Below, piece by piece: positions 3,540 to 58,765 of a stretch of 64,000 nt of DNA; position 1 is the stretch's first letter, and each line of letters opens with the position of its first letter. Under the pieces are notes generated by a model, which saw nothing but the letters and a program-made list of their open reading frames with translations, was not told the origin of the DNA and searched no databases. The position numbers were made by a program, and so were the translations under genes. This stretch comes from Clostridiaceae bacterium M8S5 (GTDB taxonomy: Bacteria; Bacillota; Clostridia; Tissierellales; MCWD3): the NCBI GenBank assembly GCA_029227815.1, contig CP118523.1, positions 4,395,500 to 4,459,499 of the forward strand. Direction: 5' to 3'.

Positions 3540-3544
3540 AAATA

Positions 3545-3619: not shown

Positions 3620-3625
3620 TAAAAA

Positions 3626-5690: not shown

Positions 5691-7004
<1,314 letters not shown>

Positions 7005-7316: not shown

Positions 7317-7387
7317 ATACATGTGCAAATTACTCAAAATTATAGAGGACGTCAATGACATCCCCTTATTTTTTCATTTCTAGTATT

Positions 7388-8584: not shown

Positions 8585-8750
8585 ATTATTTTCCTCCTAA
8601 CACACTTCCTGATATTAATGTTATACCCCAATTTCAAAACCTTTAATCAATTATTGTTAATTATTTATTTAAGTTTTATAATAATAAAAGAAGCATCCAT
8701 CAAACATTTAATGTTATGCTTCTTTTTATATCGCTCTATTTTTTGTTTAA

Positions 8751-10082: not shown

Positions 10083-10116
10083 ATTATCATCTCCACTATC
10101 TGAAAATAAAATTTAT

Positions 10117-10563
10117 CTAGAGTTTGACAACATCTACTGTGAGTTTAGCTTTTACTTTTGGATGTAACTTAATCTCTACACTACTTGAACCTAGCGTCTT
10201 GATGTTATCTTTCATTATTATTTTCTTCTTGTCTATTTTTATCTTATGTTGCTCAAATAGTAAATCTGATATATCTTTAGTTGTTATTGAACCAAACAAT
10301 CTACCCTTATCTCCTGATTTACTTTTTATTGTAACTGTCAATTTAGACAGGTTATCTGCTAATTCTTTTGCTTGATTTAGAAGTTCTTCTTCTCTATGGT
10401 CTTTTGCTTTTTTTTGTTGATCTAATACCTTTATATTTCCTGCTGTTGCCTCTTTGGCTAAGTTTTTAGGGAATAAAAAGTTTCTTACATACCCATCTTT
10501 TGCCTTTACTACATCTCCTTTTTTACCTAATCCTTTGACGTCTTGTAAAAGTATTACCTTCAT
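10117..10563 (-). CDS. rplI: 50S ribosomal protein L9
   Basis: [32 protein letters not shown] signature; 148 aa. Confidence 0.95.
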
Positions 10564-12572: not shown

Positions 12573-12584
12573 ATTTGCCTCCTA

Positions 12585-13487: not shown

Positions 13488-13488
13488 C

Positions 13489-13806
13489 TCAATTATCTTT
13501 TCTATTAAAATGCTCTAACAAAACACTTAACTCCCCATACCATTTTTCAATTTTATGCTCTTCAACTATTTTAAGCTTGATTTTACTTTTGATTTTAGCA
13601 TCTAGTTTTTGAAAAGGTATGCCCAGTCTTTTGCCCAGTAAATATGTCACAAAAATAATATTAGCTAGCACATCTATTACTACTTCCCTACTTTGTTTAG
13701 TCTCATGCATTAACGATTCATATAAAGAAGATATGGATGATAATAGCTCACACTTTAACCATTCAATTACTTTGATGTTTTTTGTAATATCAACATCATT
13801 TTTCAT
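13489..13806 (-). CDS. Small MazG-like family protein (putative nucleotide pyrophosphohydrolase fold)
   Basis: A 105-aa alpha-helical protein in the position usually held by a MazG-like ORF upstream of yybS in Clostridia. The assignment is by context and weak motif resemblance only. Confidence 0.4.
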   Translation of the reverse strand: MKNDVDITKNIKVIEWLKCELLSSISSLYESLMHETKQSREVVIDVLANIIFVTYLLGKRLGIPFQKLDAKIKSKIKLKIVEEHKIEKWYGELSVLLEHFNRKDN

Positions 13807-14061
13807 ATCTTTAGCCCCCTAATATATTATACCAATAAATGGCTATATTTTAATCATTATAATACCTTTGATTAACGCTATTACTATTTTGTAAAATATT
13901 TATGTTAAGTTGTTTTAGATTAAACGTTATATATATTTTCTATAAACACGCTTAAAAAGCCTTTAATTTGAGTTCTTTACTATATTTATTTTATAGGTAT
14001 CTTTAAGTTGTATACAATTTATATAAAAAGAGAAGCTTTATCAACTTCTCTTCTCTTAGCT

Positions 14062-14289
14062 TTATTCTGCTGTATATGGTAATAATGCTATTGTTCTAGC
14101 TCTTTTTATAGCTTGTGTAACTTGTCTTTGATGTTTAGCGCAAGTTCCAGTTATTCTTCTAGGTAAAATTTTACCTCTTTCAGTTATATATTTTTTAAGT
14201 TTGTTTATGTCTTTGTAATCTACGCTATCAACTTTATCTACACAGAAGTTACAAACTTTTTTCTTTCTTCTGAAATTCTTTTTAGCCAT
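14062..14289 (-). CDS. rpsR: 30S ribosomal protein S18
   Basis: [38 protein letters not shown] signature; 75 aa. Confidence 0.95.
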
Positions 14290-14307
14290 AATATCCCTCC
14301 TTACAAG

Positions 14308-14769
14308 CTAAAATGGTATATCTTCATCGTCTATTGGTTGAAAACCACCAGTCGCATCAAAATCATTATTAACCGGCTGTTGTTGTTGCTGTTGGAATGA
14401 AGTATTTCTACCTTGTGATTTATTACCTTCTCCCCATTCTAAAAATTGCACTTGTTCAGCTACTACTTCTGTAGTGTAAACTTTTTGACCTTGAGCATTT
14501 TGATAAGATCCGGTTTGGATTCTTCCTTTTATAGCTACCATTCTGCCTTTAGCAAGGTAATTAGCACAGTTTTCAGCCTGTCTTCCCCAGACAGTTATCC
14601 TTGGGAAATCAGCAGTAGGCCTACCCATTCTCTCTGCTTCTGCTTTCTTTTCTTTGGATAAATCTTTATCAACAGCTAAAGAAAACCTAGCTACAGCAGT
14701 TCCATTTCCCGGCAAAAATCTTAGTTCAGGGTCAGCTGTTAATCTTCCTATTAAAAATACGCTATTCAT
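14308..14769 (-). CDS. ssb: Single-stranded DNA-binding protein
   Basis: OB-fold N-terminus (MNSVFLIGRLTADPELRF), a Gln-rich linker and the acidic C-terminal tail DDEDIPF. Confidence 0.95.
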   Translation of the reverse strand: MNSVFLIGRLTADPELRFLPGNGTAVARFSLAVDKDLSKEKKAEAERMGRPTADFPRITVWGRQAENCANYLAKGRMVAIKGRIQTGSYQNAQGQKVYTTEVVAEQVQFLEWGEGNKSQGRNTSFQQQQQQPVNNDFDATGGFQPIDDEDIPF

Positions 14770-32975: not shown

Positions 32976-34694
32976 TTAGCTTCTATCTGTGTAGTGTGTA
33001 TGAAGTAATTCGTGTGACACATGACTTAATGGCTTTTCTAAAAATTCTTCATATAACACAGCTACTGCAGGATTCTTGTGAGATTTTCTAATCTCTGAAT
33101 TTCCATCTATCTGATATATTCCTTTTATTCTATTTTCTCTTATTTCGTTAGTTATAGGTATAGGTTGACCACCTCCACCTATACAACCTCCTGGACAACA
33201 CATAATCTCTATAAAATGAAAATCTTCTTTACCTGATTTGACTAGCTCTAGTATTTCCCTTGCGCTTGCCAGGCTATTTGCTACTGCCACTTTAACATCT
33301 AAATCGCCAACTTTAACTGTAGCTTTTTTAATTCCTTTAAGTCCCCTAACTCCCTTAAATTCAATATTTTCTAGTTCCTCTCCTGTAACTACCTCATAAA
33401 CAGTTCTAAGAGCTGCCTCCATAACACCTCCAGATGCTCCAAATATTACTGCTGCACCTGTTGAAATCCCCAATGGATCATCAAAATTATCTTCTACTAA
33501 TGTATTTATATCAAGCCCAACTTCTTTTATCATCTTAGCTAACTCTCTTGTAGTTAAAACCACATCTACATCCTGATATCCACTATCCGCCATTTCTTTT
33601 CTTCCTGCTTCTGCTTTTTTTGCGGTACATGGCATTATTGAAACTACATAAACATCTTTTGGATCAATACCTATCTTTTTAGGATAATAAGTTTTTGCTA
33701 ACGCACCAAACATCTGTTGTGGTGATTTACAAGTAGAAACATTATCTAAGAATTCTGGATAGAACTGTTCTACAAAATTAATCCAACCAGGGCTACATGA
33801 AGTCAACATTGGCAGTTTACCGTTGTTTTGTATTCTGTGAAGAAGTTCATTTCCTTCTTCCATGATTGTCAAATCGGCTGTAAAATTTGTATCAAACACA
33901 GCGTCAAACCCTAAATGCCTAAGTGCTGTAACTATTTTACCTGTTACTATACTTCCTGGCGGTAAACCAAAATCCTCACCTAATGCAACTCTTACTGCTG
34001 GAGCTATCTGTACAACAACATGTTTGCTATTATCATCTAAAGCACGCCAAACTGTGTTAATATCACTTTTTTCATATAATGCTCCTACTGGACAAACATT
34101 AATACATTGCCCACAATAAACACACTTAGTATCAGCAAGCCCCAAAGAAAAAGGTGTATCTATTCTCATATCACTACTTCTATGAACATTGTCAATAGCA
34201 CCTATACCCTGCACTTCATGGCATACTTCTACACATCTACCACATTTAATACACTTGCTTAAATCTCTAACTATAGATGGATTAGAGCTATCTATAGGCA
34301 AATATTCAACTGTTTTTTCTAGTTTATACTCTCTTATATTTAGTTCATTACATAACTGCTGCAACTCACAATTTCCGTTTCTAACACAGGCAAGACATTC
34401 TGCGTTATGATTTGATATAATCATTTCAACTATTGCTCTTCTTGCATCTCTTACCTTTTTAGTATTAGTTTTTATGACCATACCTTCTCTTACTGGCGTA
34501 CAACATGATGCTGCAAGTGTATTTTGTCCTTCTACCTCTACCACACATACACGACAGCTACCTTTTATATGTTGATCTGGATGAAAACATAATGTTGGTA
34601 TTTTTACATTTACCATTTTTGCTGCATCTAATATAGTTGTTCCATCATCCACAGAAACAGTTTTATTGTCTATAGTCAAATTTATTTTACTCAT
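32976..34694 (-). CDS. hydA: [FeFe] hydrogenase catalytic subunit (HndD/HydA-like): an N-terminal 2Fe-2S domain, 4Fe-4S ferredoxin domains and an H-cluster domain
   Basis: H-cluster motifs L1 TSCSPGW, L2 MPCTAKKAEA and L3 EIMCCPGGCIGGGGQP; 572 aa. Confidence 0.85.
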   Translation of the reverse strand: MSKINLTIDNKTVSVDDGTTILDAAKMVNVKIPTLCFHPDQHIKGSCRVCVVEVEGQNTLAASCCTPVREGMVIKTNTKKVRDARRAIVEMIISNHNAECLACVRNGNCELQQLCNELNIREYKLEKTVEYLPIDSSNPSIVRDLSKCIKCGRCVEVCHEVQGIGAIDNVHRSSDMRIDTPFSLGLADTKCVYCGQCINVCPVGALYEKSDINTVWRALDDNSKHVVVQIAPAVRVALGEDFGLPPGSIVTGKIVTALRHLGFDAVFDTNFTADLTIMEEGNELLHRIQNNGKLPMLTSCSPGWINFVEQFYPEFLDNVSTCKSPQQMFGALAKTYYPKKIGIDPKDVYVVSIMPCTAKKAEAGRKEMADSGYQDVDVVLTTRELAKMIKEVGLDINTLVEDNFDDPLGISTGAAVIFGASGGVMEAALRTVYEVVTGEELENIEFKGVRGLKGIKKATVKVGDLDVKVAVANSLASAREILELVKSGKEDFHFIEIMCCPGGCIGGGGQPIPITNEIRENRIKGIYQIDGNSEIRKSHKNPAVAVLYEEFLEKPLSHVSHELLHTHYTDRS

Positions 34695-35979
34695 TTATTA
34701 TCGCCCCCTTATCGAACAGACAACTGTTTGCTCTACATTCCTTGTTAATATGCTCTTTAATCTCATCTTTAAAATACTGTAAACAAGATATCACAGCTGT
34801 AGGAGCGGCTTGCCCTAGTCCACAAAGGGAGGCCGTCTTCATTACTTCGCAGATTTCTTCTAATATCTCTACATCTTTCTCTGTAGCAACACCTTTGGTT
34901 ATCTTATGCAATATCCTTACTATATGTCTATTTCCCTCTCTACATGGAGTACATTTACCACAAGACTCATGTTTAAAGAACTCCATAGTTGCTAATAAAA
35001 AGTCTAACACGCACACACTATCATCAGCCACAAACATTGCTCCTGAGCCTAAGCTTACTCCGTTCTCTCTCAAGCAATCAAAGTCTATCTTTATATCTAG
35101 TAAATTCTCTGGAATACAGGCTCCTGAAGAACCTCCTAGTTGTACAAATTTAACTTTTTTATCCGTATCCATTCCATCGCATAAATTATTTATTATTTCT
35201 CTTAAGCTAATTCCAAACTCTATCTCAAATACTCCTTTATTCACTACATTACCTGATACAGATATGAGTTTTGTTCCACTACTTGATTTTGTTCCATATT
35301 CTTTGTATTTCTCTGCACCTAAATTGAGTATAACAGGTATATTAGCTAGAGTTTCAACATTGTTAACAAGCGTTGGTTTGTTCCAAAGCCCTGCTACTGG
35401 AGGATAAGGTGGCTTAAATCTAGTCCTTCCTGCTTTTCCTTCTATTGATTCAATTAGTGCAGTCTCTTCTCCACATACATATGCACCAGCACCCGATCTA
35501 ACTTCTATATCAAAATCAAAATTAAACCCAAATATATTAGTTCCTAAATAACCTGCTTTTCTTAAAACATCTATACTCTTTATCAAAAGTTCTTTTGTCT
35601 TAGGATACTCTCCCCTTATATATATATATCCCTTAGTCGCTCCAACTGCGTGACCACAGATTATCATACCCTCTATTATTTGAAATGGACTTCCATCTAA
35701 TAACACTCTGTCTTTAAATGTGCCAGGTTCACCTTCATCTGCATTACATATAACATATTTTATAGGCGAATCTTCAGATGCTGTAAACGACCACTTTAGT
35801 CCAGTTGGGAAAGCTGCTCCTCCTCTACCTCTAAGGTTCGACGCTTTTACCTCATCTAGTACTTCCTGTGGCTTCTTTGAAAGTGCCTTCTTAGTAGCAC
35901 TAAAACCACCATTGCTTTCATATTCAGTTATGGATAGTGGATCTATCTTACCACACAATTTAGATATCAAATTTACCAT
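34687..35979 (-). CDS. NuoF-like NAD(P)H-binding flavoprotein subunit of the hydrogenase (HndC/HydB-like, short form)
   Basis: NADH dehydrogenase 51-kDa family motifs (GRGGAAFPTG, the FMN site, and a C-terminal 4Fe-4S motif CGKCTPCREG); 430 aa. Confidence 0.8.
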   Translation of the reverse strand: MVNLISKLCGKIDPLSITEYESNGGFSATKKALSKKPQEVLDEVKASNLRGRGGAAFPTGLKWSFTASEDSPIKYVICNADEGEPGTFKDRVLLDGSPFQIIEGMIICGHAVGATKGYIYIRGEYPKTKELLIKSIDVLRKAGYLGTNIFGFNFDFDIEVRSGAGAYVCGEETALIESIEGKAGRTRFKPPYPPVAGLWNKPTLVNNVETLANIPVILNLGAEKYKEYGTKSSSGTKLISVSGNVVNKGVFEIEFGISLREIINNLCDGMDTDKKVKFVQLGGSSGACIPENLLDIKIDFDCLRENGVSLGSGAMFVADDSVCVLDFLLATMEFFKHESCGKCTPCREGNRHIVRILHKITKGVATEKDVEILEEICEVMKTASLCGLGQAAPTAVISCLQYFKDEIKEHINKECRANSCLFDKGAIINE

Positions 35980-36449
35980 TACTCCACACCTTCTTTCAAG
36001 TCGTTTATAATTTGCATTGCTCTATTAACAGTCAAATTACCATACACTTTATCATTAACTTTTATAGCCGGTGCAACATCACAAGCTCCAAAACAGCTCG
36101 TATATTCAAGAGTAAATAACTTATCTGACGTAGTATCTCCCATCTTTATTCCAAGTACTTGCTCAAACGCATTTGCAATAGCTTTTCCTCTATTTATATA
36201 ACAGGGCCCACTATTACATATCTGTATCAAATATTTACCTCTTTCTTTTGTAGATAGCATAGAATAAAATCCTGCTACGCTGTAAGCTTTACTAAGAGGT
36301 ACATTTAATTCCTTTGAAATATCTCTTAGAGATGTTTCGCTGATGTAATTACCAGGTGTCTGTGACTGTACCTCTATTAACACTTCTAACAGTTTATCTT
36401 GAGTATTACCCACTTTGTTTATGGCTTCCATTACCACTTTGGATTGCAT
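35979..36449 (-). CDS. NuoE-like [2Fe-2S] thioredoxin-fold subunit (HndA/HydC-like)
   Basis: Cys motif C..C...C..C (CNSGPC...CFGAC). A GGGAGG RBS precedes the ATG at 36449; the ORF track start at 36467 is probably too early. Confidence 0.75.
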   Translation of the reverse strand: MQSKVVMEAINKVGNTQDKLLEVLIEVQSQTPGNYISETSLRDISKELNVPLSKAYSVAGFYSMLSTKERGKYLIQICNSGPCYINRGKAIANAFEQVLGIKMGDTTSDKLFTLEYTSCFGACDVAPAIKVNDKVYGNLTVNRAMQIINDLKEGVE

Positions 36450-36502
36450 AATATATCCTCCCTTCAACTTTTAAACATGATTATTTACTCTTCATTAAAT
36501 AA

Positions 36503-36862
36503 TCATAGCTTAATTAACCATTCATTAATCGGCTCATCATACATACTATGCGATATTATTATCGCTCTAGCCATTTTCTGATTTACGTATTCATATGTGT
36601 ATTTTTCGCCCTCTGGAGTGTATATGTCTAACAACGGTTCCCTACAGCACATTCCAATACATCCTGTAGTTTCAATTATTATATTATCTAATTCAGCTTG
36701 TTTTACAGTCTCCTGCAAACTGATTAAGACATCGTTAGCACCAACGCTAACGCTACAGATAGAGTATCCTAATACCGCTCGAAATTTTCCTGATGGTCTT
36801 TTTTTATCTATAGCTTCTAGTGCTTCACTCCTTAATTGTTGATATGACGTTACTATAGACAT
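36503..36862 (-). CDS. Small thioredoxin-like [2Fe-2S] ferredoxin subunit (HndB-like)
   Basis: 119 aa; TGCIGMCCREP motif; first gene of the operon. Confidence 0.6.
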   Translation of the reverse strand: MSIVTSYQQLRSEALEAIDKKRPSGKFRAVLGYSICSVSVGANDVLISLQETVKQAELDNIIIETTGCIGMCCREPLLDIYTPEGEKYTYEYVNQKMARAIIISHSMYDEPINEWLIKL

Positions 36863-36896
36863 AATGTAACCTCCTTTTATAATTTATCTAAATATA

Positions 36897-36914
36897 TTGC
36901 AACTACTGTGCCAA
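36897..36914 (-). promoter_or_regulatory. Sigma-54 (-24/-12) promoter TGGCAC-agtag-TTGCA on the minus strand, ~35 nt upstream of the first hydrogenase-operon gene
   Basis: The plus strand reads TGCAActactGTGCCA. Its reverse complement is a perfect match to the RpoN consensus TGGCAC-N5-TTGCW, correctly spaced before the AGGAGG RBS and the ATG at 36862. Confidence 0.8.
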
Positions 36915-37024
36915 ATTTTTCTATTAGTTCAAATTTTAATTTTTTGAGTCACAGAGCTGTAATTTACTAATAAATAAAGAAAGGCTAATATTTTAGACTT
37001 TCTTTGGTAATTTTTACCTAAATG

Positions 37025-37052
37025 CATACTTGCATTTAATCATGCACAAATG
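37025..37052. promoter_or_regulatory. Candidate enhancer (UAS) for the sigma-54 promoter: inverted repeat AATGCAtactTGCATT followed by TCATGCACAAATGCATT. A near-identical 17-mer, TCATGCATAAATGCATT, recurs at 37527-37545.
   Basis: Palindromic TGCA-containing repeats ~120-150 bp upstream of the -24/-12 element; the second copy overlaps the regulator's last codons. Confidence 0.45.
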
Positions 37053-37522
37053 CATTATTTGAGCTTTACAGTACTACTATTGGTTAAACTTAATCTTACT
37101 AATAAAATTATTTATTATTCGCAATATTTTTTCTTCTCACTTTAGAGAATTAAGCATCATATTTTACATTAAAAAACGTTTTCATTTAAGTTATTATAAT
37201 AATTCGCACATGCTCTATTTTCGATTTGATCTTTGGATTGTTTAAGTCAAAGCTCATGATTAAATTTAGTAAATATCCTTTTAATTTATTTTAGAATATT
37301 CTGATTTTTGATTTTTTATTGCGAGTTGCACAAAAATAATCATATCAAAGACAGATAAAATTTTTGATTAAATTTTAATATTGATTGCAATTTATATAAA
37401 TCCCTCTTTACTGTAATTTTTGAACCTTTACTACAAAACAAAAGAAGTACTCAAATAATGAGTACTTCTTTTTATTACCCTCAGTTTAAATTTATTTAAG
37501 CTAATAACAGCTCTAATTAATT

Positions 37523-40180
37523 CTAATCATGCATAAATGCATTGTTTTTAAAATATTTTTGTATTTTTCTTACTACTGTGGATTGATTAACTTTTAAAAC
37601 TTGTGCTATTTCATAGGTTGTCCTGTATTTTTTGTATGCATTCTCAATCAATTGTTTTTCTAATAGCTCTATTGCTTCTTTAAGTGGAATAATTCCGTTA
37701 ATATCTATTTTATTAGCATTTCTAAGGTTCTCCATAAACAAAAATGCTGGCAAATCATTCTTATCTATTGTATCATTTCTAGTGGTTACTATTAGTCTCT
37801 CTATTAAATTCTCTAGTTCCCTAACATTCCCAGGCCAATCGTAAGTTTTTAAGATTTCTTCTCCTTGGCTAGTTATTTTTTTAGAGCAACTGTATTTATT
37901 ATTGTATATGTTAAGAAAATAATAACAAAGCGGTAATATATCATCAACTCTTTCTCTAAGTGGAGGTATGTTTATTGGCACAACATTTAGTCTATAATAT
38001 AAATCTGCTCTAAATGTCCCCTCCTTAACCATTTGGAACAAATCTCTATTGGTCGCGGCTATTATTCTTACATCTACATAAATTTCCTTTGTTCCTCCTA
38101 TTCTTATAAGCTTTCTTTCTTGTAAGACTCTTAATAGCTTAACTTGTATATTAAGAGGTAATTCTCCTATCTCGTCTAGGAAAAGTGTCCCTTTATCTGC
38201 TATTTCTATTAATCCTGGTTTTCCACGCTTAGATGCGCCTGTGAATGCACCTGTTTCATATCCAAAAAGTTCTGATTCTATCAAACTTTCTGGAATGGCT
38301 CCACAGTTTATCTTAACCATGGGAATATCTTTTCTTCCGCTAAGGCTATGTATGAATTTTGCAATTACTTCTTTTCCTACCCCTGATTCTCCTAGTATAA
38401 GTATTGTTGAATCAACACATGCTACTTTGCTTGCTGTCTGCAGTACTTTACCGAACTCAATACTGTTTGCAACAAGATTTGCATTGTTCGTCACATTGTT
38501 ATACATTTCTTTTTTATCATTTTCAATATTAAAATATTTTTGTAACTTCTTTGTCTCATTTAGTTGCTCTCTAAGCTTAATTAATTCTTCAATATCTCTT
38601 ATATTCGTGACAACTCTAGCTATATTGTTACTTTCATCAAAAACAGGTGTAGCTGTTGCTAAATATTGATTTGAATTAAACGAATTTTGTATAAATGATA
38701 TTCTTCTCTTTTCTTTTAGTACTAGGAGTGTTCCTGATGGGAATATTATGTTATTATTCTCCATTTCTAGTACATTGTCTTTCTCTCTATCAAACCCGAT
38801 CATGTTTTTCCATGCTTTATTCGTCTTTAATATTTTGCCTTGCCCATCTGTTACCATCATCCCATCATACGAAGATTCTATTATCGTCTCAAGCTCTTCT
38901 TTTAGTGTAGTAATCTCTTTTAATCTTCCCGATATCTCCTTTAATAACTTAGTCTTTTTGTTGTTCAGATAAGGAAGGCACATCTCAACTTCTGCAATAC
39001 CTTGCACAACAGCTACTGCTTTGTCTCTACATGTGTTGTATCCACATGCCCCACAATTGAGTTGATCTTTTTCCGTTTGCTTATCTGTTAGTTTAAGTAC
39101 CTGATCTATTTCTCTTTCCGACGGATATGGCATTATACTTCTTCTGTTAGTGAACGTCCTTTTATAGTTAATTTCTGTATCTAACTCTACTGCATTTTTT
39201 ACGTATTTTCTATTATTGTAGAATTTTTTTATTGTATGTAATTTCTCAAACATACTAAGATCACTATCTATTTTACATCCATTTATACAACCATTACACA
39301 TAAGCACATCTACAAATTTAAAAGTAAATTTTCCTTCAAGAAGTGAATCTACAAGTTCAAAGCATTCTTCCTCACCATCAATATATATGTAATCTTCATT
39401 TATTAGGCTGTCGTCTTGTTTAAACACATTCTTAATCATTCCACCTGATAGAGGGAATAATCTGCCATTTCTATTACCAACAACATCAAACTCTTGCTCA
39501 CTTGACTGCCTTATATTGATTTTATTTTTTATAAAAAGCCTTTTAAGCTCCTCAAATGTTAAGGCACAATCTATTACACCACTATTTTGAAATTCCATAG
39601 CCTCAGCTTTTTTAGCAACACATGGTCCTATAAATACTATCTTTGTATCATCCTCTGGGTATTTTTTTCTTATTATTCTACCAGTGCTTATCATTGGAGA
39701 TACAAAGGGTAACAGATTATCAATAAGCTCAGGATAATGCTTTTCTATCATCGTTGTAAATGCTGTACACGCAGTACTAATATATGTTTTCTTATCATTA
39801 TCAGATATGTAGTCTTTTACTCTATTCGATAGCTCTTCTGCTCCAAAAGCTACTTCCCATACTTCGTCAAACCCTAATTCTTTTAAAGCACCTACTACTT
39901 TTTTATATGAAAACGTATGAAAACTTACGACAAAAGAAGGAGCTATACAAGCAACTATTCTCTTATTTTGTTTTAGAATGTTTTGGCATCTTGTCTCACT
40001 ATCTAGGACAATTTTAGCATTTTGAGGACAACTGCTTATACACTTACCACAGTTGATGCATCTAGAATACATTATTTCTGCTTGTCCATTTTTTATCTGA
40101 ACAGCTTTAACTGGACAATTTCTAACACATGCATAACACTGTTTACACTTGTTTTGTGTCACACTTATTATATTTTTCAT
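37523..40180 (-). CDS. Sigma-54-dependent enhancer-binding protein with an N-terminal 2x[4Fe-4S] ferredoxin plus [FeFe]-hydrogenase-like (H-cluster-type) sensor domain, a central PAS-like region, an AAA+ sigma-54 activator domain and a C-terminal Fis-type HTH
   Basis: N-terminal CxxCxxCxxxCP x2, then hydrogenase large-subunit-like motifs (STACTAF, GPCVAKKAEA, LMCNGCINGC). The AAA+ part has Walker A GESGVGKE and a GAFTGA-like GAFTGASKRG. The HTH is C-terminal. An AGGAAAGGTG RBS precedes the ATG at 40180. Confidence 0.8.
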   Translation of the reverse strand: MKNIISVTQNKCKQCYACVRNCPVKAVQIKNGQAEIMYSRCINCGKCISSCPQNAKIVLDSETRCQNILKQNKRIVACIAPSFVVSFHTFSYKKVVGALKELGFDEVWEVAFGAEELSNRVKDYISDNDKKTYISTACTAFTTMIEKHYPELIDNLLPFVSPMISTGRIIRKKYPEDDTKIVFIGPCVAKKAEAMEFQNSGVIDCALTFEELKRLFIKNKINIRQSSEQEFDVVGNRNGRLFPLSGGMIKNVFKQDDSLINEDYIYIDGEEECFELVDSLLEGKFTFKFVDVLMCNGCINGCKIDSDLSMFEKLHTIKKFYNNRKYVKNAVELDTEINYKRTFTNRRSIMPYPSEREIDQVLKLTDKQTEKDQLNCGACGYNTCRDKAVAVVQGIAEVEMCLPYLNNKKTKLLKEISGRLKEITTLKEELETIIESSYDGMMVTDGQGKILKTNKAWKNMIGFDREKDNVLEMENNNIIFPSGTLLVLKEKRRISFIQNSFNSNQYLATATPVFDESNNIARVVTNIRDIEELIKLREQLNETKKLQKYFNIENDKKEMYNNVTNNANLVANSIEFGKVLQTASKVACVDSTILILGESGVGKEVIAKFIHSLSGRKDIPMVKINCGAIPESLIESELFGYETGAFTGASKRGKPGLIEIADKGTLFLDEIGELPLNIQVKLLRVLQERKLIRIGGTKEIYVDVRIIAATNRDLFQMVKEGTFRADLYYRLNVVPINIPPLRERVDDILPLCYYFLNIYNNKYSCSKKITSQGEEILKTYDWPGNVRELENLIERLIVTTRNDTIDKNDLPAFLFMENLRNANKIDINGIIPLKEAIELLEKQLIENAYKKYRTTYEIAQVLKVNQSTVVRKIQKYFKNNAFMHD

Positions 40181-42655: not shown

Positions 42656-42687
42656 AATTCGCCATCTTAGAAGGCAAACACAAAAAA

Positions 42688-42803
42688 ACTGGCGACGTCC
42701 TACTCTCCCAGGCAGTCTCCCACCAAGTACCATCAGCGCTAAGAGGCTTAACTTCCGTGTTCGGTATGGGAACGGGTGTGACCCTCTTGCTGTAATCACC
42801 AGA
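42688..42803 (-). rRNA. rrf: 5S ribosomal RNA
   Basis: The reverse complement reads TCTGGTGATTACAGCAAGAGGGTCACACCCGTTCCCATACCGAACACGGAAGTTAAGC...GAGAGTAGGACGTCGCCAG, a canonical 5S. Confidence 0.9.
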
Positions 42804-42855
42804 TTTAAAATAAAATATTAAGTTTGAAGTTAATACCTTCAAAACTACACAGAAA

Positions 42856-47716
<4,861 letters not shown>

Positions 47717-48380
47717 CAAAATAAAAATTTATCCTAAAGTTAATTTCTTAACTTTCTTACTCTTTTAACGAATTGACTTCGTTTTGTTTCTGGCTTTGCA
47801 CTGTTCAATTTTCAAGGTTCAACTTTGCTTACTGCTGTAAGCGACTTCTCTATAATATCATTTTTTTTCATTTTTGTCAAGGACTTATTTTTTTCGATAT
47901 TTTCTTTCGTCCTTGGCTGTTGTTGTTTTTGCCAACTTTTATAGTTTAACCGCATTTTGTGTTCTTGTCAATAGTTTATTGATATTTTTATAAAAAAATT
48001 TGTCTAATAACTTGCTACTGCTGATATATTGTCTTTTAACAGAATCTATATATCATCTTAAATTATTTGTAATATAAACTCTAATACAAAACCAATCCTG
48101 TCCCTATTTTTTTCTTAAACATATTTTTAGATTTTTATTACTTTATTTTAAATTCGTGTTAATCAATTTTATTTTAACATTTTCTTTTTATAGATTGCAT
48201 AAAAATATATAAACTTAATATCTGTAAACGAGTATCTATAAATATATTTCTAAATATGAATAAATAAAAATAGATGTGGTAAAACTTTTATTATTAAATT
48301 TTTTATAGTTTGTATAATTCTACTATTTTTAAAAATTGAATATTGCAACTGATTTGTTGCAAAACTGGTGGGAGGAACAT

Positions 48381-51229: not shown

Positions 51230-52000
51230 TTATTCTTTAATATAGCATATATAATAAACCATTGGCACTATTATAGCTCCACCAATCAAATTTCCAATAG
51301 TAACTGGTATTAAATTATTAGTCCACATTTCAACCCAAGTAAATCCTGCACCTACTAACTTTCCCATTGGTATAAAAAACATATTTGCAACAGAATGCTC
51401 AAAACCTGATAATACAAATAGCATTATTGGGAACCAGCATGTGAAAATTTTCCCTATAACATCTGTTGATGCTGTTGATATCCATACTGCTAATACTACT
51501 ACTATGTTACATAATATACCTCTAGTAATACATTCTACTAATGTTAAATTTACTTTAGCGGTTGCTATTGCTTTAATATTATCTCCCACTAAACCTGCAT
51601 ACAAATTCGTTTTACTAAATATTAATGCTAGTAATACAGATCCTATGAAATTACCTATATAAACTAATATCCAGTTTTTTAACATTTTATTAAGGGATAT
51701 CTTTTTACTCATGAGTGCAATTGTCATAGTGTTGTTTCCAGTGAATAATTCTGCTCCTGCTAATATTACTAACATTAAACCTACTGGAAATACTGATGCA
51801 CCTACAAATTTTGCAAAACCCGCATCAAATTTTCCTAGCGATTGTGTCACTACTAAATATCCATGTGCTCCAAAACCTATAAATGCTCCTGCAAATATAC
51901 CTAACAATATCATCTTTATGCTTGATAATTTTGATTTTTTTACAGAAGTTTCAATTGTTTTATTCGCTATCTCTCTTGGAGTTAATAGCGGTTTTCTCAT
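51230..52000 (-). CDS. focA: Formate/nitrite transporter family channel (FocA-like)
   Basis: FNT-family TM pattern (FAGAFIGFG, GAELFTGN). An AGGGGGA RBS precedes the second in-frame ATG at 52000. Confidence 0.75.
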   Translation of the reverse strand: MRKPLLTPREIANKTIETSVKKSKLSSIKMILLGIFAGAFIGFGAHGYLVVTQSLGKFDAGFAKFVGASVFPVGLMLVILAGAELFTGNNTMTIALMSKKISLNKMLKNWILVYIGNFIGSVLLALIFSKTNLYAGLVGDNIKAIATAKVNLTLVECITRGILCNIVVVLAVWISTASTDVIGKIFTCWFPIMLFVLSGFEHSVANMFFIPMGKLVGAGFTWVEMWTNNLIPVTIGNLIGGAIIVPMVYYICYIKE

Positions 52001-52108
52001 AAATATTCCCCCTTGCATTTTGTATACAGTAAAGCATTAACGCTTTACCAAGTTCTAGTGTTTTTTAGACATTTATAAATATTCAATACTTTTATAGAAT
52101 ATCATATA

Positions 52109-52939
52109 TTAAGTATCTTTGTTAAGTTTAAATTTTCTATCAATTAATATATTGCCACTTTGTGTGTATACATTCATTTTGTTACCTCTCGCAAAACCAA
52201 TTAATGTTAAATTTAAAGATTTTGCTATCTCTATAGATAGATTTGTTGGAGCTGATTTTGAAACCACAGCAGGTATGTTTATTTTGGCTGCTTTTATCAC
52301 CATATCAGATGATAATCTGCCACTTGTAACTATATATTTGTCTTTGACCTCTAAATCATTCAATATTATATATCCTATTATTTTATCTATTGCATTATGT
52401 CTACCTATATCTTCTTCAAAAACTATTATTCTATCATCGATGCATAAACCACAACTATGAACGCCCCCTGTTTCTTTAAATAGTTGAGATTGAGTTGTGA
52501 ATTTTTTCATAACTCTACTAACTTTACTATTATTTATAATAATGTTACTTGTATTTATTTTTGAATTAAATGAATCTAGCTCATTATAAAAAATTGTACC
52601 TTTACCACACGACGATGTTATAGTTTTTTTAGAGTATAATTTATAACTAAACTCTTTAAGTGATACATATATTAACCCCTTCTCTTCTAATATATTTATA
52701 GCTAAAATATCGCTTTTTTTCTTTATTAATTCCTCTACAAAAATATACCCAACGGTTAGATATTTTATAGATTTTGGAGTACATAATAAAGTTACAATCT
52801 CTTTATCATTTACAAATATAGTATATGGTTTTTCAACGATGATTTCATCTTCTTTAAATATTGATCTATTTTTATTAATCTCCAAAATCTTGTATTTTAC
52901 TTTTGTTTTCATCACTTGACCTCTACTTTTATTTGGCAT
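52109..52939 (-). CDS. fdhD: Formate dehydrogenase accessory sulfurtransferase FdhD
   Basis: Conserved Cys-containing segment (SSCGKGT..) and a C-terminal SGRLSSDMV; 276 aa. Confidence 0.8.
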   Translation of the reverse strand: MPNKSRGQVMKTKVKYKILEINKNRSIFKEDEIIVEKPYTIFVNDKEIVTLLCTPKSIKYLTVGYIFVEELIKKKSDILAINILEEKGLIYVSLKEFSYKLYSKKTITSSCGKGTIFYNELDSFNSKINTSNIIINNSKVSRVMKKFTTQSQLFKETGGVHSCGLCIDDRIIVFEEDIGRHNAIDKIIGYIILNDLEVKDKYIVTSGRLSSDMVIKAAKINIPAVVSKSAPTNLSIEIAKSLNLTLIGFARGNKMNVYTQSGNILIDRKFKLNKDT

Positions 52940-53567
52940 TATGAATATATATGTTCAAATCTTCTTTTGTGTTTAAATTTATAAACATACTTAGGTCGTT
53001 ACTATAGTTTCTTGCTACTTTTTCTTCTATATATTCACATTTTATTTTTTTTACAAATGAATGTATTGAATTGCTATTTTTTAAAATATGTTCTTCTAAC
53101 TGAGTGAGTATGGATACATTATAGAAAGAGTTTAATGGCTCTATCCACTTTCCGTTTTTTGTTATACATGCGCTTATATCTTTACTGCAAATTCTTCTTT
53201 TCATAAATCTAATGTATTTTAGATTTATATTTGGCATATCACATGCTATAAAATATACGTATTTACTCTTTGCTTCTTTTAATCCTTTGTGTATACCACT
53301 TAAAGGTCCTTTTCCTATAATTTCATCTCTATATATTCTTATATTTTTATTTTTATTGTAATTTGGTTTATTTGTAATGATTATTATATCATTGAATTCG
53401 TCTTGAAGCTTACTTGATATGGTATCCAGTAACCTAACATTGTTTATTTTTAATGTTTGTTTATCAAATCCCATTCTTTTGCTTTTTCCTCCAGCCAATA
53501 TAACACATGTGCCAAAATCATCACTCATAAATAATCCCTCTTCATGTATATTCGTATATGTTAACAA
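52929..53567 (-). CDS. mobA: Molybdenum cofactor guanylyltransferase (MobA-like)
   Basis: N-terminal VILAGGKSKRMGFDK nucleotide-binding motif; 212 aa. Confidence 0.75.
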   Translation of the reverse strand: MLTYTNIHEEGLFMSDDFGTCVILAGGKSKRMGFDKQTLKINNVRLLDTISSKLQDEFNDIIIITNKPNYNKNKNIRIYRDEIIGKGPLSGIHKGLKEAKSKYVYFIACDMPNINLKYIRFMKRRICSKDISACITKNGKWIEPLNSFYNVSILTQLEEHILKNSNSIHSFVKKIKCEYIEEKVARNYSNDLSMFINLNTKEDLNIYIHNAK

Positions 53568-56239
53568 ATCTTTTTTATACTTACTGCACTTACTTTTAGT
53601 TCAGGAATTTTACAGATTTCATCCAAATGATTCCCTGTCAGAACATTTGCTGCACCTTGAGCAAAATGAAATGGCATAAAAACAATTCCCCGAGCTATTG
53701 TTTTTACTATCTTGACCTTAGTTTTGATAACACCTCTCCTTGATGAAACTTCCACAATTTCAGCATCTTTTATACAGTATGCTTTTGCATCTAATTCATT
53801 AATCTCTATATATGATTCTGCTGATTTTTTGTTAAGTCCCTCTACTCTACCTGTCATACTCCTTGTATGATAATGGTATAAATTTCTACCAGTAGTCATA
53901 ATAAATGGATAGTCACTGTTTGGTGTTTCAGCGCTTTCTTGATGCTCTTGGGGTAAAAATAGTCCTTTTCCTCTCACACAATGCCCCTCATGCAAAAACT
54001 TAGTACCTTTATGCTCTTTGTCTAAACAAGGCCATTGTAATCCTTTGTTCTCTATTCTACTATAGTCAATCCCTCCATATTGTGGAGTCACTTTTGCTAT
54101 TTCTTTCATTATCTCAGAAGCATTATCGTATGTTTGACTGTATCCAAGCTTATTCATTATTTCCATTATTATTTTCCAATCAGCTTTAGATTCACCAACT
54201 TCAGTAATAGCTTTTCTCACTCTCTGTATTCTTCTCTCTGTATTTGTAAATGTTCCATCTTTTTCAGCAAATGAACTTGCCGGGAGCACAACATCAGCAA
54301 ACATTGCTGTTTCTGTTAAAAATATATCTTGTACTATTAAAAACTCTATGTTTTCTAATGCTTTTCTGACATGTTTTGTATCTGGGTCGGATACAATAGG
54401 GTTTTCTCCCATAATATATAATGCCTTTATATTTCCATCTACTGCACCATCCATGATTTCTGGTATGGTGTAACCTATGTCATTTGACATATCATCTACT
54501 TGCCATGCTTTTTTGAATTTTTCTATTACCTTTTCATCATCAACCTTTTGATAGCCCGGGAAATTATTTGGTAAGGCTCCCATATCACATGCCCCTTGAA
54601 CATTATTCTGCCCTCTTAATGGATTAACTCCAGCCGATTCTATACCAACGTTTCCACATAGTAATGCTAAATTTGAAACGCTCATTACTGTATGTGTCCC
54701 TGTTTTATGTTGCGTTATTCCCATTGCGTAATATATTCCCGCATTATTAGCCTGGGCATAAATTCTAGCAGCTCTTTTTATATCATTAGCATCTATCTCA
54801 CAAATTTTGGCTACTTTTTCTGGAGTATAGTTTTTAACTAAATCTACTAATTTTGCGTATCCCTCGGTCTTCTTTTTTATGTAGTGTTTATCTTCTAGTT
54901 CCTCTGTAATTATGACATACATCATGGAATTCAAAAGAGCTATATTAGTTCCTGGCTTGATTTGTAAAAATACATCAGCATCTTTAGCTAAATCTATTTT
55001 TCTAGGATCTGCTACTATTAATTTTGAACCTCGCTCCTTTGCTTGGAGTATTTTTGAGCCAATTACTGGGTGATTTTCTGTTGTATTTGAGCCTATAACA
55101 AAAATAGCTTCATTATTTATAATTTCACCTATACTGTTTGTCATTGCTCCACTACCTAAAGTTGTTGCAAGACCTGCAACTGTTGATGAATGTCAGAGCC
55201 TTGCACAATGATCAATATTATTTGTTTTCAATACTCCTCTGAAAAGTTTTTGGAATAAATAATTTTCTTCATTAGTACACCTTGCGCTACTTAAACCTGC
55301 TATAACTTTTGACCCATGTTTTTTTCTTATTATATTAATATTTTTTGCTATCGTAGCGTATGCTTCTTCCCACTCTGCCTCGATTAATTTACCCTCTTTA
55401 CGTATAAGTGGTCTTTGTAATCTATCGTCATGATTAATAAACTTATACCCAAACTTACCTTTAACACATAAAAGTCCATCATTTGAGTGTCCTTTTATTG
55501 GATTAACTCCAACTACTTTTTCTTCTTTTACTAATAGCTCCATCTGACAACCTACTCCACAATAAGAACATGTAGTTTTGACTTTTTTTACCTCCCACAA
55601 TCTAAACTTTTCTTTTGACTTAGGTAGTAAAGCACCTACAGGACAAATTGATACACAATTTCCACATGATACACATGTTGAATTGTTGATGTCGTCTTCA
55701 AAAGGCGCACTTACATGTGTTTTGAATCCTCTTTCACTAAATGATATAGCTCTAGTATGTTGTAATTCATTGCATACCCTAACACATTTGCCACATTCGA
55801 TACATTTATTAAGCTCTATAGTGAAAAATGGATTGCTATCATCTAATTCAAATTCTTTTCTTTCTCCATAATAAGACGTCCTATGTACATCATATTCATA
55901 GCAGTATTGCTGCAACTTACATTCCCCTGATTTTTTACATGTTAAGCAGTCTTCTGGATGATTTGATAAAATCATATCTAATATATCACGTCTTGCATCC
56001 ATTACCTTTTGGCTATGGGTCTGTATCACCATTCCTTCTATGGCTATAGTAGAGCATGATGTTGATAACGTTTGCATGCCTTCTATCTCAACTACGCAAA
56101 GTCTACAGGCGGAATGTGGTTCTAATCTGTCATCATGGCAAAGTGTCGGAATTTTGATATTTAATCTTCTGCATATTTGAAGTATAGTTTCTCCTTTTTT
56201 CGCCTGTACTGATTTTCCATTGATTTCTAAATTTATCAC
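53561..56239 (-). CDS. fdhA: Selenocysteine-containing formate dehydrogenase catalytic subunit (FdhA/FdhF-type) with N-terminal 2Fe-2S and 4Fe-4S ferredoxin domains. A single reading frame with an in-frame TGA (Sec) at 55193-55195.
   Basis: Across the TGA the frame reads ...[33 protein letters not shown]..., matching the FdhF ARV-U-HGPSVAGL Sec region. The molybdopterin oxidoreductase 4Fe-4S motif CSYCGVGC is present, and a SECIS hairpin follows the TGA. Confidence 0.85.
55160..55192 (-). promoter_or_regulatory. Bacterial SECIS element: hairpin GUUGCA-GGUCU-UGCAAC, 12 nt downstream of the UGA
   Basis: The mRNA reads UGA CAUUCAUCAACA GUUGCAGGUCUUGCAAC, nearly identical to the E. coli fdhF SECIS apical stem-loop GGUUGCAGGUCUGCACC. 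Confidence 0.8.
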
Positions 56240-57010: not shown

Positions 57011-58765
57011 CTACAGTGGATATATATCTCTTTTTACATAATGAGTATGAAGTAAATCATGTGCTTTATGACTATTTGGCTTTTCAAAATACTCATCGTA
57101 TATTTTCTTAATCATTGGGTTTTTATGAGATTTTCTTATTACTTTTGCCTCATCTTCATTATATAACGCTTTTGCTCTTTCTCTTCTAACGTCTACATTC
57201 ATTTTAACTTTAGAACTAACATGTGGTTGTCCACCACCATTTACACAACCGCCAGAACAACCCATTACTTCAATAAAGTGATATTGCTTTTCGCCAGATT
57301 TAACTTTTTCTAATAATTCACTTGCACAACCTGTACTATGTGCTACTGCAATATTTACATCTAAGTCGCCAATTTTAATTGTAGCTTCTTTTATTCCTTC
57401 TGTTCCTCTTACCTGTGTGAAGTTTATTTCTTTTAATTCTTCGTTTGTTAATACTTCATACACTGTTCTTAACGCAGCCTCCATAACTCCACCTGTAGCA
57501 CCAAATATTACTCCTGCTCCTGATGATTCACCTAATATTGAATCAAAGTCTTCATCTGGTAGATTTACAAAATCTAAACCTGCTTGTTTTATCATCTTAG
57601 CGAACTCTCTAGTTGTCAATACTGCATCAACATCTTGATGTCCATTACAAGCTAATTCTTCTCTTTTTGCTTCGTATTTTTTAGCTGTACAAGGCATTAT
57701 TGAAACTACATATATCTTAGATGGATCTATATTGTTTTTCTCAGCATAGTAAGATTTAACTACTGCTCCTAACATTTCATGTGGAGATTTACATGTTGAT
57801 AAATTGTCTAGGAACTCTGGATAATAATGCTCACAGTATTTTATCCAACCTGGTGAACATGATGTAATCATCGGTAATTTGCCACCATTATTTATTCTAC
57901 CAAGTAATTCTGTTCCTTCTTCCATTATTGTTAAGTCAGCTGCAAAATCTGTATCAAATACTTTATCAAATCCAAGTCTTCTAAGGGCAGCTGCCATTCT
58001 ACCAGTTACTGACGTACCCATTGCTAACCCAAACTCTTCTCCAAGTGCTGCTCTAACCGCTGGTGCTGTTTGAACTACTACATGTATATCTTTATCTTCT
58101 ATAGCATCCCATACATAATCTATCTCAGTTTTTTCTCTTAATGCTCCTACTGGACATGACACTATACATTGTCCGCAATTTATACATGGAGTATCTCCTA
58201 TTTCTTTATCAAAAGCTGGTGATACAGTAGACTCGAAGCCTCTATTTGCATAGTTTAGTACCCCTATTTTTTGAACATCATTACATACACTTACACATCT
58301 ACCACACAAGATACATTTATTTGGATCCCTTACTATTGAAGGTGATGATGTATCTACTGGTCTTATAGTTTTTTCACCTTTAAACTCTATATCTGTTACA
58401 CCTAACTCTTCACAAAGTGTTTGTAACTCACAGTTATGGTTTCTACTACAAGTTAGACATTCTCTATCATGATTTGATAAAAGTAATTCTAAGTTTGTCT
58501 TTCTTGCCTCTCTGATTTTCTTGGTATTTGTTCTAATAACCATACCTTCACCAACTTTGGCAACACATGATGCTTGTAAAACCCTAGCTCCTTCTACATC
58601 TACTAGGCACATTCTACAGGCTCCTGTCTGGTTTACATCTTTTAAATAACAAAGAGTCGGTATTTTAATTCCAGCACTATTTGCTGCTTCAAGTATAGTA
58701 TATTCTTCTGGAACTTGAATTGATTTATTATCTATAGTAATGGTAACCATACCCATCATATACAC
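57011..58765 (-). CDS. hydA: [FeFe] hydrogenase catalytic subunit HydA (bifurcating HydABC / HndD type)
   Basis: L1 TSCSPGW, L2 MPCTAKKYEA, L3 EVMGCSGGCVNGGGQP, with N-terminal 2Fe-2S and ferredoxin domains; 584 aa. Confidence 0.85.
   Translation of the reverse strand: MYMMGMVTITIDNKSIQVPEEYTILEAANSAGIKIPTLCYLKDVNQTGACRMCLVDVEGARVLQASCVAKVGEGMVIRTNTKKIREARKTNLELLLSNHDRECLTCSRNHNCELQTLCEELGVTDIEFKGEKTIRPVDTSSPSIVRDPNKCILCGRCVSVCNDVQKIGVLNYANRGFESTVSPAFDKEIGDTPCINCGQCIVSCPVGALREKTEIDYVWDAIEDKDIHVVVQTAPAVRAALGEEFGLAMGTSVTGRMAAALRRLGFDKVFDTDFAADLTIMEEGTELLGRINNGGKLPMITSCSPGWIKYCEHYYPEFLDNLSTCKSPHEMLGAVVKSYYAEKNNIDPSKIYVVSIMPCTAKKYEAKREELACNGHQDVDAVLTTREFAKMIKQAGLDFVNLPDEDFDSILGESSGAGVIFGATGGVMEAALRTVYEVLTNEELKEINFTQVRGTEGIKEATIKIGDLDVNIAVAHSTGCASELLEKVKSGEKQYHFIEVMGCSGGCVNGGGQPHVSSKVKMNVDVRRERAKALYNEDEAKVIRKSHKNPMIKKIYDEYFEKPNSHKAHDLLHTHYVKRDIYPL

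Follow-up and report, generated by a model that had tools for sequence, protein, structure and literature searches.

Introduction

Fusion of an iron-hydrogenase-like sensory domain to a sigma-54 activator was described by Wu et al. (2005) for CHY1547 of Carboxydothermus hydrogenoformans, a protein proposed to be H2-responsive and encoded beside a hydrogenase cluster, of the [NiFe] type (PMC1287953). A Fer4-Fe_hyd_lg_C-FeS architecture is given for CFE_2753 and TherJR_2992 in the supplement of Nie et al. (2019), in a table that holds no hydrogenase regulon (PMC6615313). Here we have investigated a regulator gene of related design in a 64-kb stretch of DNA from Clostridiaceae bacterium M8S5 (contig CP118523.1, positions 4,395,500 to 4,459,499; the whole stretch is termed the window), together with the multimeric [FeFe] hydrogenase operon that follows it on the same strand. 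Sequence and comparison with related loci make it highly probable that a HydS-type sensor/activator, a tandem dyad enhancer, a sigma-54 promoter and the hydrogenase operon form a self-contained control unit.

The window regulator resembles the CHY1547-type proteins in that an [FeFe]-hydrogenase-like iron-sulfur (FeS) module is fused to a sigma-54 AAA+ activator. It differs from them in domain make-up, as the CHY1547-type proteins, of about 750 amino acids (aa), lack a PAS domain, join the sensor directly to the AAA+ domain and carry HTH_8, whereas PAS and HTH_50 domains are present here. In the literature searched, outside which most subscription journals lie, no target promoter or site is described for a fusion of either the window type or the CHY1547 type. 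The group C HydS proteins of Thermotoga maritima and Ruminococcus albus share two [4Fe-4S] clusters, replacement of the relay Cys by Ala and of Met353 by Gly, a four-Cys cluster followed by a PAS domain (PMC13104023) with the regulator; these proteins, however, end after the PAS domain and are thought to signal via separate kinases or phosphatases, whereas the output domain of the window regulator is fused to the sensor. HydS-like histidine-kinase fusions, which we take to be the 'histidine kinase-linked' group C1 of HydDB, possess the same sensor but their output is phosphotransfer to a response regulator, not direct activation of transcription.

In Cupriavidus necator (Ralstonia eutropha), the [NiFe] sensor HoxBC, the kinase HoxJ and the NtrC-type activator HoxA operate at sigma-54 promoters, and there also a hydrogenase-derived sensor governs a sigma-54 activator of hydrogenase operons. 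That cascade consists of three proteins with a [NiFe] sensor, whereas the window regulator is one polypeptide with a sensor of the [FeFe] type, and the two sensors are not homologous. NorR, which senses NO via non-haem iron, and FhlA, which senses formate, are one-component sigma-54 activators of NO reductase and formate hydrogenlyase, respectively. Both resemble the system described here in that an N-terminal sensor gates the AAA+ domain, tandem dyads lie upstream and the target is a dedicated neighbouring operon; their sensors, however, are GAF domains, and the window regulator scores below the cut-off of either family (322 vs 476 bits for NorR, 278 vs 830 bits for FhlA). With regard to the controlled enzyme, the Thr/Lys pair, the GGSSG motif and the absence of a C-terminal ferredoxin domain in the window beta subunit are shared with Hyd1ABC of Syntrophomonas wolfei and HydAB of Syntrophus aciditrophicus (PMC7311640), and GAGAY in place of GAGAF may be a further common feature; the window operon differs from theirs in having an extra 119-aa thioredoxin-like subunit. 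The unit appears to be a conserved variant of the classic activator/enhancer/sigma-54 design, for which no description was found in the literature searched. The fusion architecture has been known since 2005, and the enhancer appears to be located at, and in one clade to run through, the stop codon of the activator's own gene.

Layout of the proposed control unit

The elements of the unit, in the order in which they are encountered on the minus strand, are as follows (UAS, upstream activating sequence).

37523-40180, minus strand: regulator gene, 885 aa from ATG, with two Fer4 domains, Fe_hyd_lg_C, FeS (PF04060), PAS, Sigma54_activat, AAA_lid and HTH_50 (Pfam)
37529-37542: gene-end copy of UAS site 1, in the regulator's last six codons AAT GCA TTT ATG CAT GAT
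37042-37055, minus-strand reading: UAS site 1 copy ATGCATTTGTGCAT, collinear with the gene end of Abyssisolibacter fermentans
37020-37037: UAS site 2, promoter-proximal, perfect 18-bp palindrome AAATGCAAGTATGCATTT, core at 37022-37035
36913-36898, minus strand: sigma-54 promoter TGGCACAGTAGTTGCA, with -24 element TGGCAC at 36913-36908 and -12 element TTGCA at 36902-36898
36876-36870, minus strand: ribosome-binding site AAGGAGG of the first operon gene, read from the sequence
36503-36862, minus strand: 119-aa thioredoxin-like [2Fe-2S] protein, first operon gene (E 2e-12 to 9n5u_B residues 8-94)
35979-36467, minus strand: NuoE/HydC-like subunit (Pfam, NCBIfam)
34687-35979, minus strand: short NuoF/HydB-like subunit of 430 aa, with a non-bifurcating signature
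32976-34694, minus strand: HydA catalytic subunit of 572 aa (NF040763, 924 bits vs 765 cut-off)

The original prediction had placed a promoter of the form TGGCAC-N5-TTGCA about 35 nt upstream of the first ATG of the operon, and it is found there. GG and GC doublets are 10 nt apart, the sigma-54 consensus is matched exactly at 36913-36898 and 35 nt were counted between the last base of the promoter and the ATG at 36862. This is the single exact match to TGGCAC-N5-TTGCW in the window; one further match, with one mismatch, is located at 51263 on the plus strand, inside focA and on the wrong strand. Transcription is predicted to start near 36887-36888, about 12 nt downstream of the -12 GC.

The layout was compared with the DNA of 17 related loci (L001-L010, L016-L020, L021 and L022; 39-78% identity, at least 12 genera). 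The order regulator gene, palindromes, -24/-12 element and hydrogenase operon, all on one strand, is kept in 17 of 17, and the regulator gene lies directly upstream of, and on the same strand as, a NuoE/NuoF/HydA operon in every locus with a long enough contig. The -12 GC is separated from the first ATG by 36-49 nt, or 105 nt in L020, and the relatives' elements read TGGCA(C/T), TGGTAT, AGGTAT or CGGCAC followed by N5, one variable base and TGC. Elsewhere in these loci, the -24/-12 pattern occurs 23 times in 472,874 nt, which corresponds to about 0.2 occurrences expected across the intergenic regions. This constant layout, together with the intact AAA+ motifs and helix-turn-helix (HTH) of the regulator described below, strongly supports the earlier proposal of a self-contained unit formed by sigma-54 and an adjacent enhancer-binding protein. 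Three features had been missed, namely the HydS-type sensor in the regulator, the likely origin of the third palindrome in an insertion and the apparent identity of the 119-aa gene as a split NuoF domain.

The regulator

By domain order and motif residues, on which the HydS-type assignment is based, the input half of the regulator is a sensory [FeFe]-hydrogenase module of the HydS type, and the output half to which it is fused consists of a sigma-54 AAA+ activator and an HTH domain. The Pfam E-values are 1e-52 for Fe_hyd_lg_C and 7e-70 for Sigma54_activat (PF00158), with PF04060 located at residues 376-406, PAS at 431-535 and HTH_50 at 836-879. In an alignment with solved hydrogenases, motif L1 of the sensor reads STACT as compared with TSCCP, the relay Cys being replaced by Ala137 and the cluster ligand kept; motif L2 reads GPC as compared with MPC, Met353 being replaced by Gly185; and motif L3, DVLMC-NGC, retains both cysteines, with Met497 replaced by Leu293. 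These substitutions agree with those published for HydS, as A131, G177 and the non-conserved position 267 of T. maritima HydS are substitutions typical of sensory enzymes (PMC10055695). The H-cluster cysteines, C300, C355, C499 and C503 in CpI, correspond to C138, C187, C295 and C298 and are invariant in 50 homologues, as are the Lys and Glu of motif L2. Positions invariant among both the 15- and the 50-homologue alignments comprise the eight N-terminal cysteines, C138, G185-P186-C187, C295/C298 and C376/C379/C384/C401. The relay position is occupied in the family by A, P, S or N, and never by Cys.

The output half is equally complete in its motifs, with Walker A GESGVGK at 597, GAFTGA at 644, the Walker B DEI at 669 and the arginine-finger motif RADLYYR at 724. 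GAFTGA is present in 47 of the 50 homologues and the HTH helix NQST(V/I)VRK is kept across all 50. In the AlphaFold model each domain is confident, with a mean predicted local distance difference test (pLDDT) of 83.5, and the helices of the HTH region span 855-862 and 866-876. The regulator reaches no curated NCBIfam cut-off, the best being PrdR (407 vs 795 bits), and scores 208 bits against FeFe_hydrog_B1, for which the cut-off is 450; the Clostridiaceae bacterium M8S5 protein with the identical sequence is annotated as 'sigma 54-interacting transcriptional regulator'. Full-length homologues of this architecture, with 44-78% identity, number at least 120 and are encoded in hosts including Abyssisolibacter, Caloranaerobacter, Caldisalinibacter, Wukongibacter, Alkaliphilus, Lucifera, Thermovenabulum, Tepidanaerobacteraceae and Peptococcaceae, among others.

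A metagenome scan added only two further members of the regulator family. Among the 80 best metagenome loci matching the sensor alignment, 76, all within L023-L100, are not activators. Seven of these were scanned by Pfam; HATPase_c was detected in all seven and HisKA in five, some with a receiver, GAF-GAF or PAS domain in addition. As the others of these 76 measure about 650-690 aa and show no AAA+ motifs, we infer that they too are histidine-kinase fusions. The sensor appears to be a reusable input module. A second type of hydrogenase-sensor/sigma-54 fusion, that of CHY1547, of about 755 aa with HTH_8 and without PAS, is encoded at L048 (6501-8780) and L068 (3774-6044); a -24/-12 element is located downstream of these genes, no ATGC-N6-GCAT dyads are present downstream of either fusion, and genes other than a hydrogenase operon adjoin them. 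In L020 (1-15693, Thermoanaerobacteraceae), the HydS-activator fusion with its own hydrogenase operon is immediately preceded by a cluster that encodes a classical, stand-alone HydS of 449 aa, a HydABC of the bifurcating type and DRTGG, PHP and HATPase proteins. Two sensors with different wiring adjoin one another there.

Putative enhancer sites at the end of the regulator gene

Palindromes had been reported upstream of the promoter, and two exact sites are present with centres 20 bp apart, the nearer one about 130 bp and the farther one about 150 bp upstream of the -12 GC. Enhancer-binding proteins of the NtrC/NifA class bind dyad-symmetric sites 80-300 bp from the promoter, and the tandem dyads lie at a distance suited to such binding. 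ATGCA-N4-TGCAT occurs in three copies in the 64 kb (37022-37035, 37042-37055 and 37529-37542), all at the hydrogenase locus, compared with 0.06 expected from shuffled sequence, three copies being reached in none of 100 shuffles. The relaxed core ATGC-N6-GCAT is found at the same three places in the window and at no others. The third copy corresponds to the recurring 17-mer of the original prediction, TCATGCATAAATGCATT, which is present but spans 37527-37543 and not 37527-37545; it lies inside the last six codons, coding within N-A-F-M-H-D, and is followed by the stop codon of the regulator at 37525-37523.

ATGC-N6-GCAT dyads are located at the regulator stop codon in every related locus, as a tandem pair 19-20 bp apart. 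In 18 loci including the window, the exact dyad occurs 36 times in 5,503 nt of gene end and intergenic DNA vs 2 times in 243,534 nt elsewhere, an enrichment of about 800-fold by a statistic that ignores the shared ancestry of the loci. The symmetrised consensus is TAATGCA-N4-TGCATTA, in which the ATGC and GCAT arms are nearly invariant and the centre is free. Invariant arms combined with a variable spacer are characteristic of a sequence read by a protein and not of an RNA stem. In the related loci, a terminator hairpin is present between dyads and promoter. The distant family members L018-L022 possess, besides the stop-codon pair, a third, single dyad, which adjoins this hairpin at 73-185 nt upstream of the -12 element.

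In the closest clade, consisting of 13 loci including the window, the first dyad begins at -19 relative to the end of the stop codon and encodes the last six residues of the regulator, (N/D)-A-x-x-H-(D/N/Y/K). The gene-end copy in the window starts at this position, as do the corresponding dyads of the 12 close relatives and of L018. In the 12 relatives the second dyad is located at +1, right after TAA, and it is to this dyad that UAS site 2 of the window corresponds. The codon preceding the His ends in G in 12 of the 13 loci (AAG, GAG, ACG, CTG or ATG) vs 14% of the codons of these genes, a bias with a binomial P of about 8e-10 if shared ancestry is ignored. The tail itself, residues 880-885, is predicted to be disordered (pLDDT <50, AlphaFold), and distant homologues stop right after the HTH helix, have no such tail and carry both dyads downstream of the stop codon. 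Combined, the bias toward G-ending codons, the tail-less distant homologues and the disordered tail indicate that selection at the gene end acts on the DNA and not on the peptide. To judge from the variation in codons and spacers, the dyads have been retained repeatedly and independently. An enhancer overlapping the last codons of its activator would represent a clear case of DNA-level selection shaping a protein tail.

A probable insertion behind the third copy

The closest comparison is provided by Abyssisolibacter fermentans (L016), in which the regulator is 78% identical, the operon and the flanking genes are the same and the intergenic region measures 207 bp vs 660 bp in the window. The gene end in A. 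fermentans reads AATGCATTTATGCAT GAT TAA ATGCAAATAAACAT. In the window, the promoter-proximal pair reads ATGCATTTGTGCAT-GATTAA-ATGCAAGTATGCAT and the present gene end reads ATGCATTTATGCAT GAT TAG. The same GATTAA hexamer constitutes an Asp codon and the stop codon between the dyads in L001, L006, L007, L008, L010 and L016. The following features are located in the intergenic region of the window.

37524-37547: left 24-nt direct repeat, 92% identical to the right repeat, 487 bp apart
37440-37472, minus strand: intrinsic terminator of the regulator gene, a 14-pair stem followed by a T-run
37061-37522: AT-rich insert of 462 bp, absent from the closest relative
37037-37060: right 24-nt direct repeat, partner of 37524-37547
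37036-37041, minus strand: GATTAA spacer between the UAS sites, read as a relic of the ancestral last codon and stop codon, GAT TAA
36969-37012, minus strand: weak hairpin with a T-rich tail between UAS and promoter, in the position of the regulator terminator in the relatives

An insertion or duplication of about 487 bp, flanked by the 24-nt repeats, appears to have split the ancestral gene-end/enhancer layout, the gene having kept its last codons and the intact dyad pair having stayed with the promoter. Such an event would explain the third copy of the palindrome in the end of the regulator gene. On the comparison with A. fermentans, the gene-end palindrome is the ancestral enhancer position, duplicated by the insertion, and not an extra site. 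The insert (37061-37522) has no second copy in the window, where only chance-level matches were obtained, and contains no open reading frame (ORF) longer than 33 aa; Rfam scans of the intergenic region at E up to 1, and of the whole window, gave no match at the locus.

It is possible, if doubtful, that the palindrome at 37529-37542, about 640 bp upstream of the promoter, still functions as a third enhancer site and is not a passive relic maintained by its coding role alone. Enhancer-binding proteins can act from several hundred bp, the palindrome is still exact and layouts consisting of a pair plus a single dyad exist in L018-L022. However, its partner behind the stop codon is gone, with AATTAATTAG now in that position, a strong terminator and about 400 bp of unrelated DNA separate the site from the promoter, and an intact pair is available at the usual distance from the promoter. 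In addition, the identical sequence in Abyssisolibacter shows that the coding copy has merely remained undiverged. We prefer duplication of the ancestral site by the insertion.

Two further repeats were noted in this region. A 12-nt inverted repeat at 36953-36964/37503-37514, considered as the ends of a mobile element, was rejected as a chance match, since 750 AT-rich bases contain 28 pairs of this kind. At 37197-37220, inside the insert and 160 bp from the enhancer pair, the 24-nt repeat is weakly matched for a third time (75% identity); no extended similarity surrounds this copy, which may be a chance match or a decayed duplicate.

The controlled hydrogenase operon

Pfam agrees with the identification in the original prediction of the other three operon genes as encoding NuoE-like, NuoF-like and HydA-like subunits. 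The 119-aa product of the first gene has no Pfam match and matches the N-terminal thioredoxin-like [2Fe-2S] domain of NfnB/HoxF/HydB; by this similarity, the gene encodes the thioredoxin-like domain that has been split off from the N-terminus of the NuoF-like subunit. The HydA subunit scores above the NCBI cut-off for 'NADH-dependent [FeFe] hydrogenase, group A6'. Beta-subunit features that separate NADH-dependent, non-bifurcating enzymes from bifurcating enzymes have been described by Losey et al. (2020) (PMC7311640), and those of the non-bifurcating type are found here: T87 and K89 align with A232 and M234 of T. maritima HydB (7p5h_B), positions at which Thr or Ser and Lys, Ser or Ala, respectively, mark the non-bifurcating type; GGSSG is present at 282-286 in the SLBB region instead of GGPSG; and there are neither Fer4 domains nor a C-terminal 2x[4Fe-4S] region. 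The beta subunit also reads GAGAYVCGEE vs GAGAFVCGEE in T. maritima HydB (F312) and in the long HydB of the window; 'position 367' of Losey et al. does not match the 7p5h_B numbering, and the choice of this Tyr-for-Phe residue is our own reading. The controlled enzyme is thus predicted to be of the NADH-dependent, non-bifurcating type. The short form of the NuoF-like beta subunit is also found in the close clade, and in more distant members the downstream NuoF is fused to a GltD-like domain and has bifurcating-type residues.

Both HydA proteins of the window possess TSCSPGW in motif L1 (about 33800-33820 and 57880-57900), not TSCCPGW. As the solved HydA1 chain 7q4v_A also has TSCSPGW, this is a normal variant of the enzyme group.

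Proposed mechanism and signal

The mechanism proposed below is built on the domain make-up, the cluster ligands, the promoter, the sites and the linkage to the regulator gene, all obtained from sequence and comparison. We infer that HTH dimers bind the TAATGCA-N4-TGCATTA sites (core ATGC-N6-GCAT), which are arranged in tandem at a spacing of 19-20 bp. H2 most likely sets the redox or ligand state of the H-cluster, and this state would be relayed through the FeS/PAS region and would control the assembly or the ATPase activity of the AAA+ ring. The ring would then loop to RNA polymerase-sigma-54 at TGGCAC-N5-TTGCA and open the promoter, and transcription would begin about 25 nt upstream of the first ATG, that of the 119-aa gene, and cover all four genes of the hydrogenase operon. 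In the regulator, a single protein probably converts H2 (or redox state) into transcription, and this switch is probably conserved across many anaerobes.

The direction of the response may be either of two. Induction by H2 would serve uptake and is made plausible by the analogous [NiFe] sensor cascade in Cupriavidus necator, and repression by H2 is equally plausible because an NADH-dependent hydrogenase evolves H2 only at very low H2 pressure, a property that would make coupling to the H2 level sensible either way. Purified S. aciditrophicus HydAB is reported to have produced 2.2-40.2 Pa H2 (PMC7311640).

The more specific reading, that the regulator family provides a complete one-protein route from H2 to transcription, consisting of an [FeFe] H-cluster sensor, a PAS relay, a sigma-54 ATPase and a DNA-binding domain, with the enhancer at or through its own stop codon, appears to us evenly poised between true and false. 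As part of this reading, regulator, enhancer, terminator and promoter would move as one compact cassette. Several observations weigh against the proposed mechanism. H2 as the signal would follow from homology to HydS, which is itself only a putative sensor, and in a 2026 study the C-terminal cluster of a group D HydS (TamHydS) was not reduced by H2 (PMC13104023). No hydE, hydF or hydG maturase genes are present in the 64-kb window, and no RpoN box was detected by motif search in the window or in 100 fetched loci. The shared ancestry that is ignored by both the dyad enrichment and the codon statistic counts on the same side.

It is conceivable, although on balance unlikely, that the cis-architecture is as described but that the sensor responds not to H2 but to general redox state, iron-sulfur status, O2 or CO, the hydrogenase-like domain then being an electron-accepting or cluster-stability sensor. 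The putative status of HydS, the unresponsive TamHydS cluster and the lack of maturase genes in the window all favour this explanation, and three accessory [4Fe-4S] clusters with a PAS domain could couple the sensor to pools of ferredoxin or NAD(P)H. However, the four H-cluster cysteines and the L2 Lys and Glu are invariant in the 50 homologues, which would not be required of a simple FeS redox sensor, and the regulator is invariably linked to H2-converting enzymes. In addition, T. maritima HydS binds a functional H-cluster and turns over H2 (PMC10055695).

A very improbable alternative is that the palindromes are operators for another factor, for example a repressor, or act on the 3' end of the regulator mRNA, with the enhancer-binding protein binding elsewhere. 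This would be in keeping with the location of the sites at a gene end beside a terminator, but the sites accompany the regulator family in at least 12 genera and do not occur with the fusions that carry HTH_8 as DNA-binding domain. A spacing of 19-20 bp between tandem dyads and a position 75-320 bp upstream of the -12 element represent typical enhancer geometry; the arms are conserved without covariation and, at 4-5 bp, are too short for a stable RNA stem; and in the window it is the promoter, and not the gene end, that has retained the pair. The dyad motif is also unlike the Rex box, TTGTGAA-N4-TTCACAA. The least credible proposal, that the -24/-12 match is functionless and that transcription of the operon depends on a sigma-70 promoter or on read-through out of the regulator gene, can draw on the many sigma-70-like matches in this AT-rich DNA (26 observed vs 25.6 expected) but is opposed by the presence of GG-N10-GC in 17 of 17 related loci at a fixed distance to the ATG, by the absence of any minus-strand sigma-70-like match within about 290 nt of the operon ATG and by the terminators between the regulator gene and the operon.

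Activation from the dyads at a sigma-54 promoter is our preferred reading of the locus. In papers from 2018-2026, HydS-type [FeFe] hydrogenases are referred to as 'putative' sensors and the missing interaction partner is the main gap (PMC13104023). In the regulator family described here, the partner would be fused to the sensor and the output would be readable from the DNA, as an 18-bp dyad pair and a -24/-12 promoter, which renders the hypothesis testable by reporter, gel shift and ATPase assay. Should H2 prove to be the signal, the regulator would be the first H2 sensor of the [FeFe] type whose output is known and easily assayed; the question of HydS signalling would become directly testable, and a portable H2 biosensor for sigma-54 hosts could be derived.

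Second hydrogenase operon and neighbouring genes

Further features of the window, outside the control unit, are as follows.

61531-57011, minus strand: second multimeric [FeFe] hydrogenase operon, about 20 kb from the controlled operon
53561-56239, minus strand: catalytic subunit of a formate dehydrogenase
51230-53567: MobA, FdhD and a formate transporter
42687-47723, 1300-14769 and 62945-63817: rRNA operon and replication-related genes

The second operon encodes a NuoE of 163 aa, a 122-aa thioredoxin-like protein, a 597-aa HydB and a 584-aa HydA. This HydB is full-length and of the bifurcating type, with GGPSG, PGAFM and GAGAF motifs and a C-terminal 2x[4Fe-4S] region. A near-consensus sigma-70-like promoter, TTGACA-17-TATAAT, is located at about 61842-61870, and neither the dyads nor the -24/-12 element occur at this operon. 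Fermenters with two such operons might choose between a sensor-controlled, NADH-dependent hydrogenase and one of the bifurcating type with a sigma-70-like promoter.

A selenocysteine formate dehydrogenase cluster follows the second operon. Its catalytic subunit is represented by two ORFs, with an in-frame TGA at 55193-55195 within HCARL-U-HSSTVAGL, and this TGA is likely a selenocysteine codon by its sequence context; the genes for MobA, FdhD and the formate transporter come next. An rRNA operon (5S, 23S and 16S) and genes for DnaB helicase, SSB, a DnaD/DnaI-like protein, ParB, ribosomal protein L9 and purA are located around the locus, which suggests an origin-proximal region of the chromosome.

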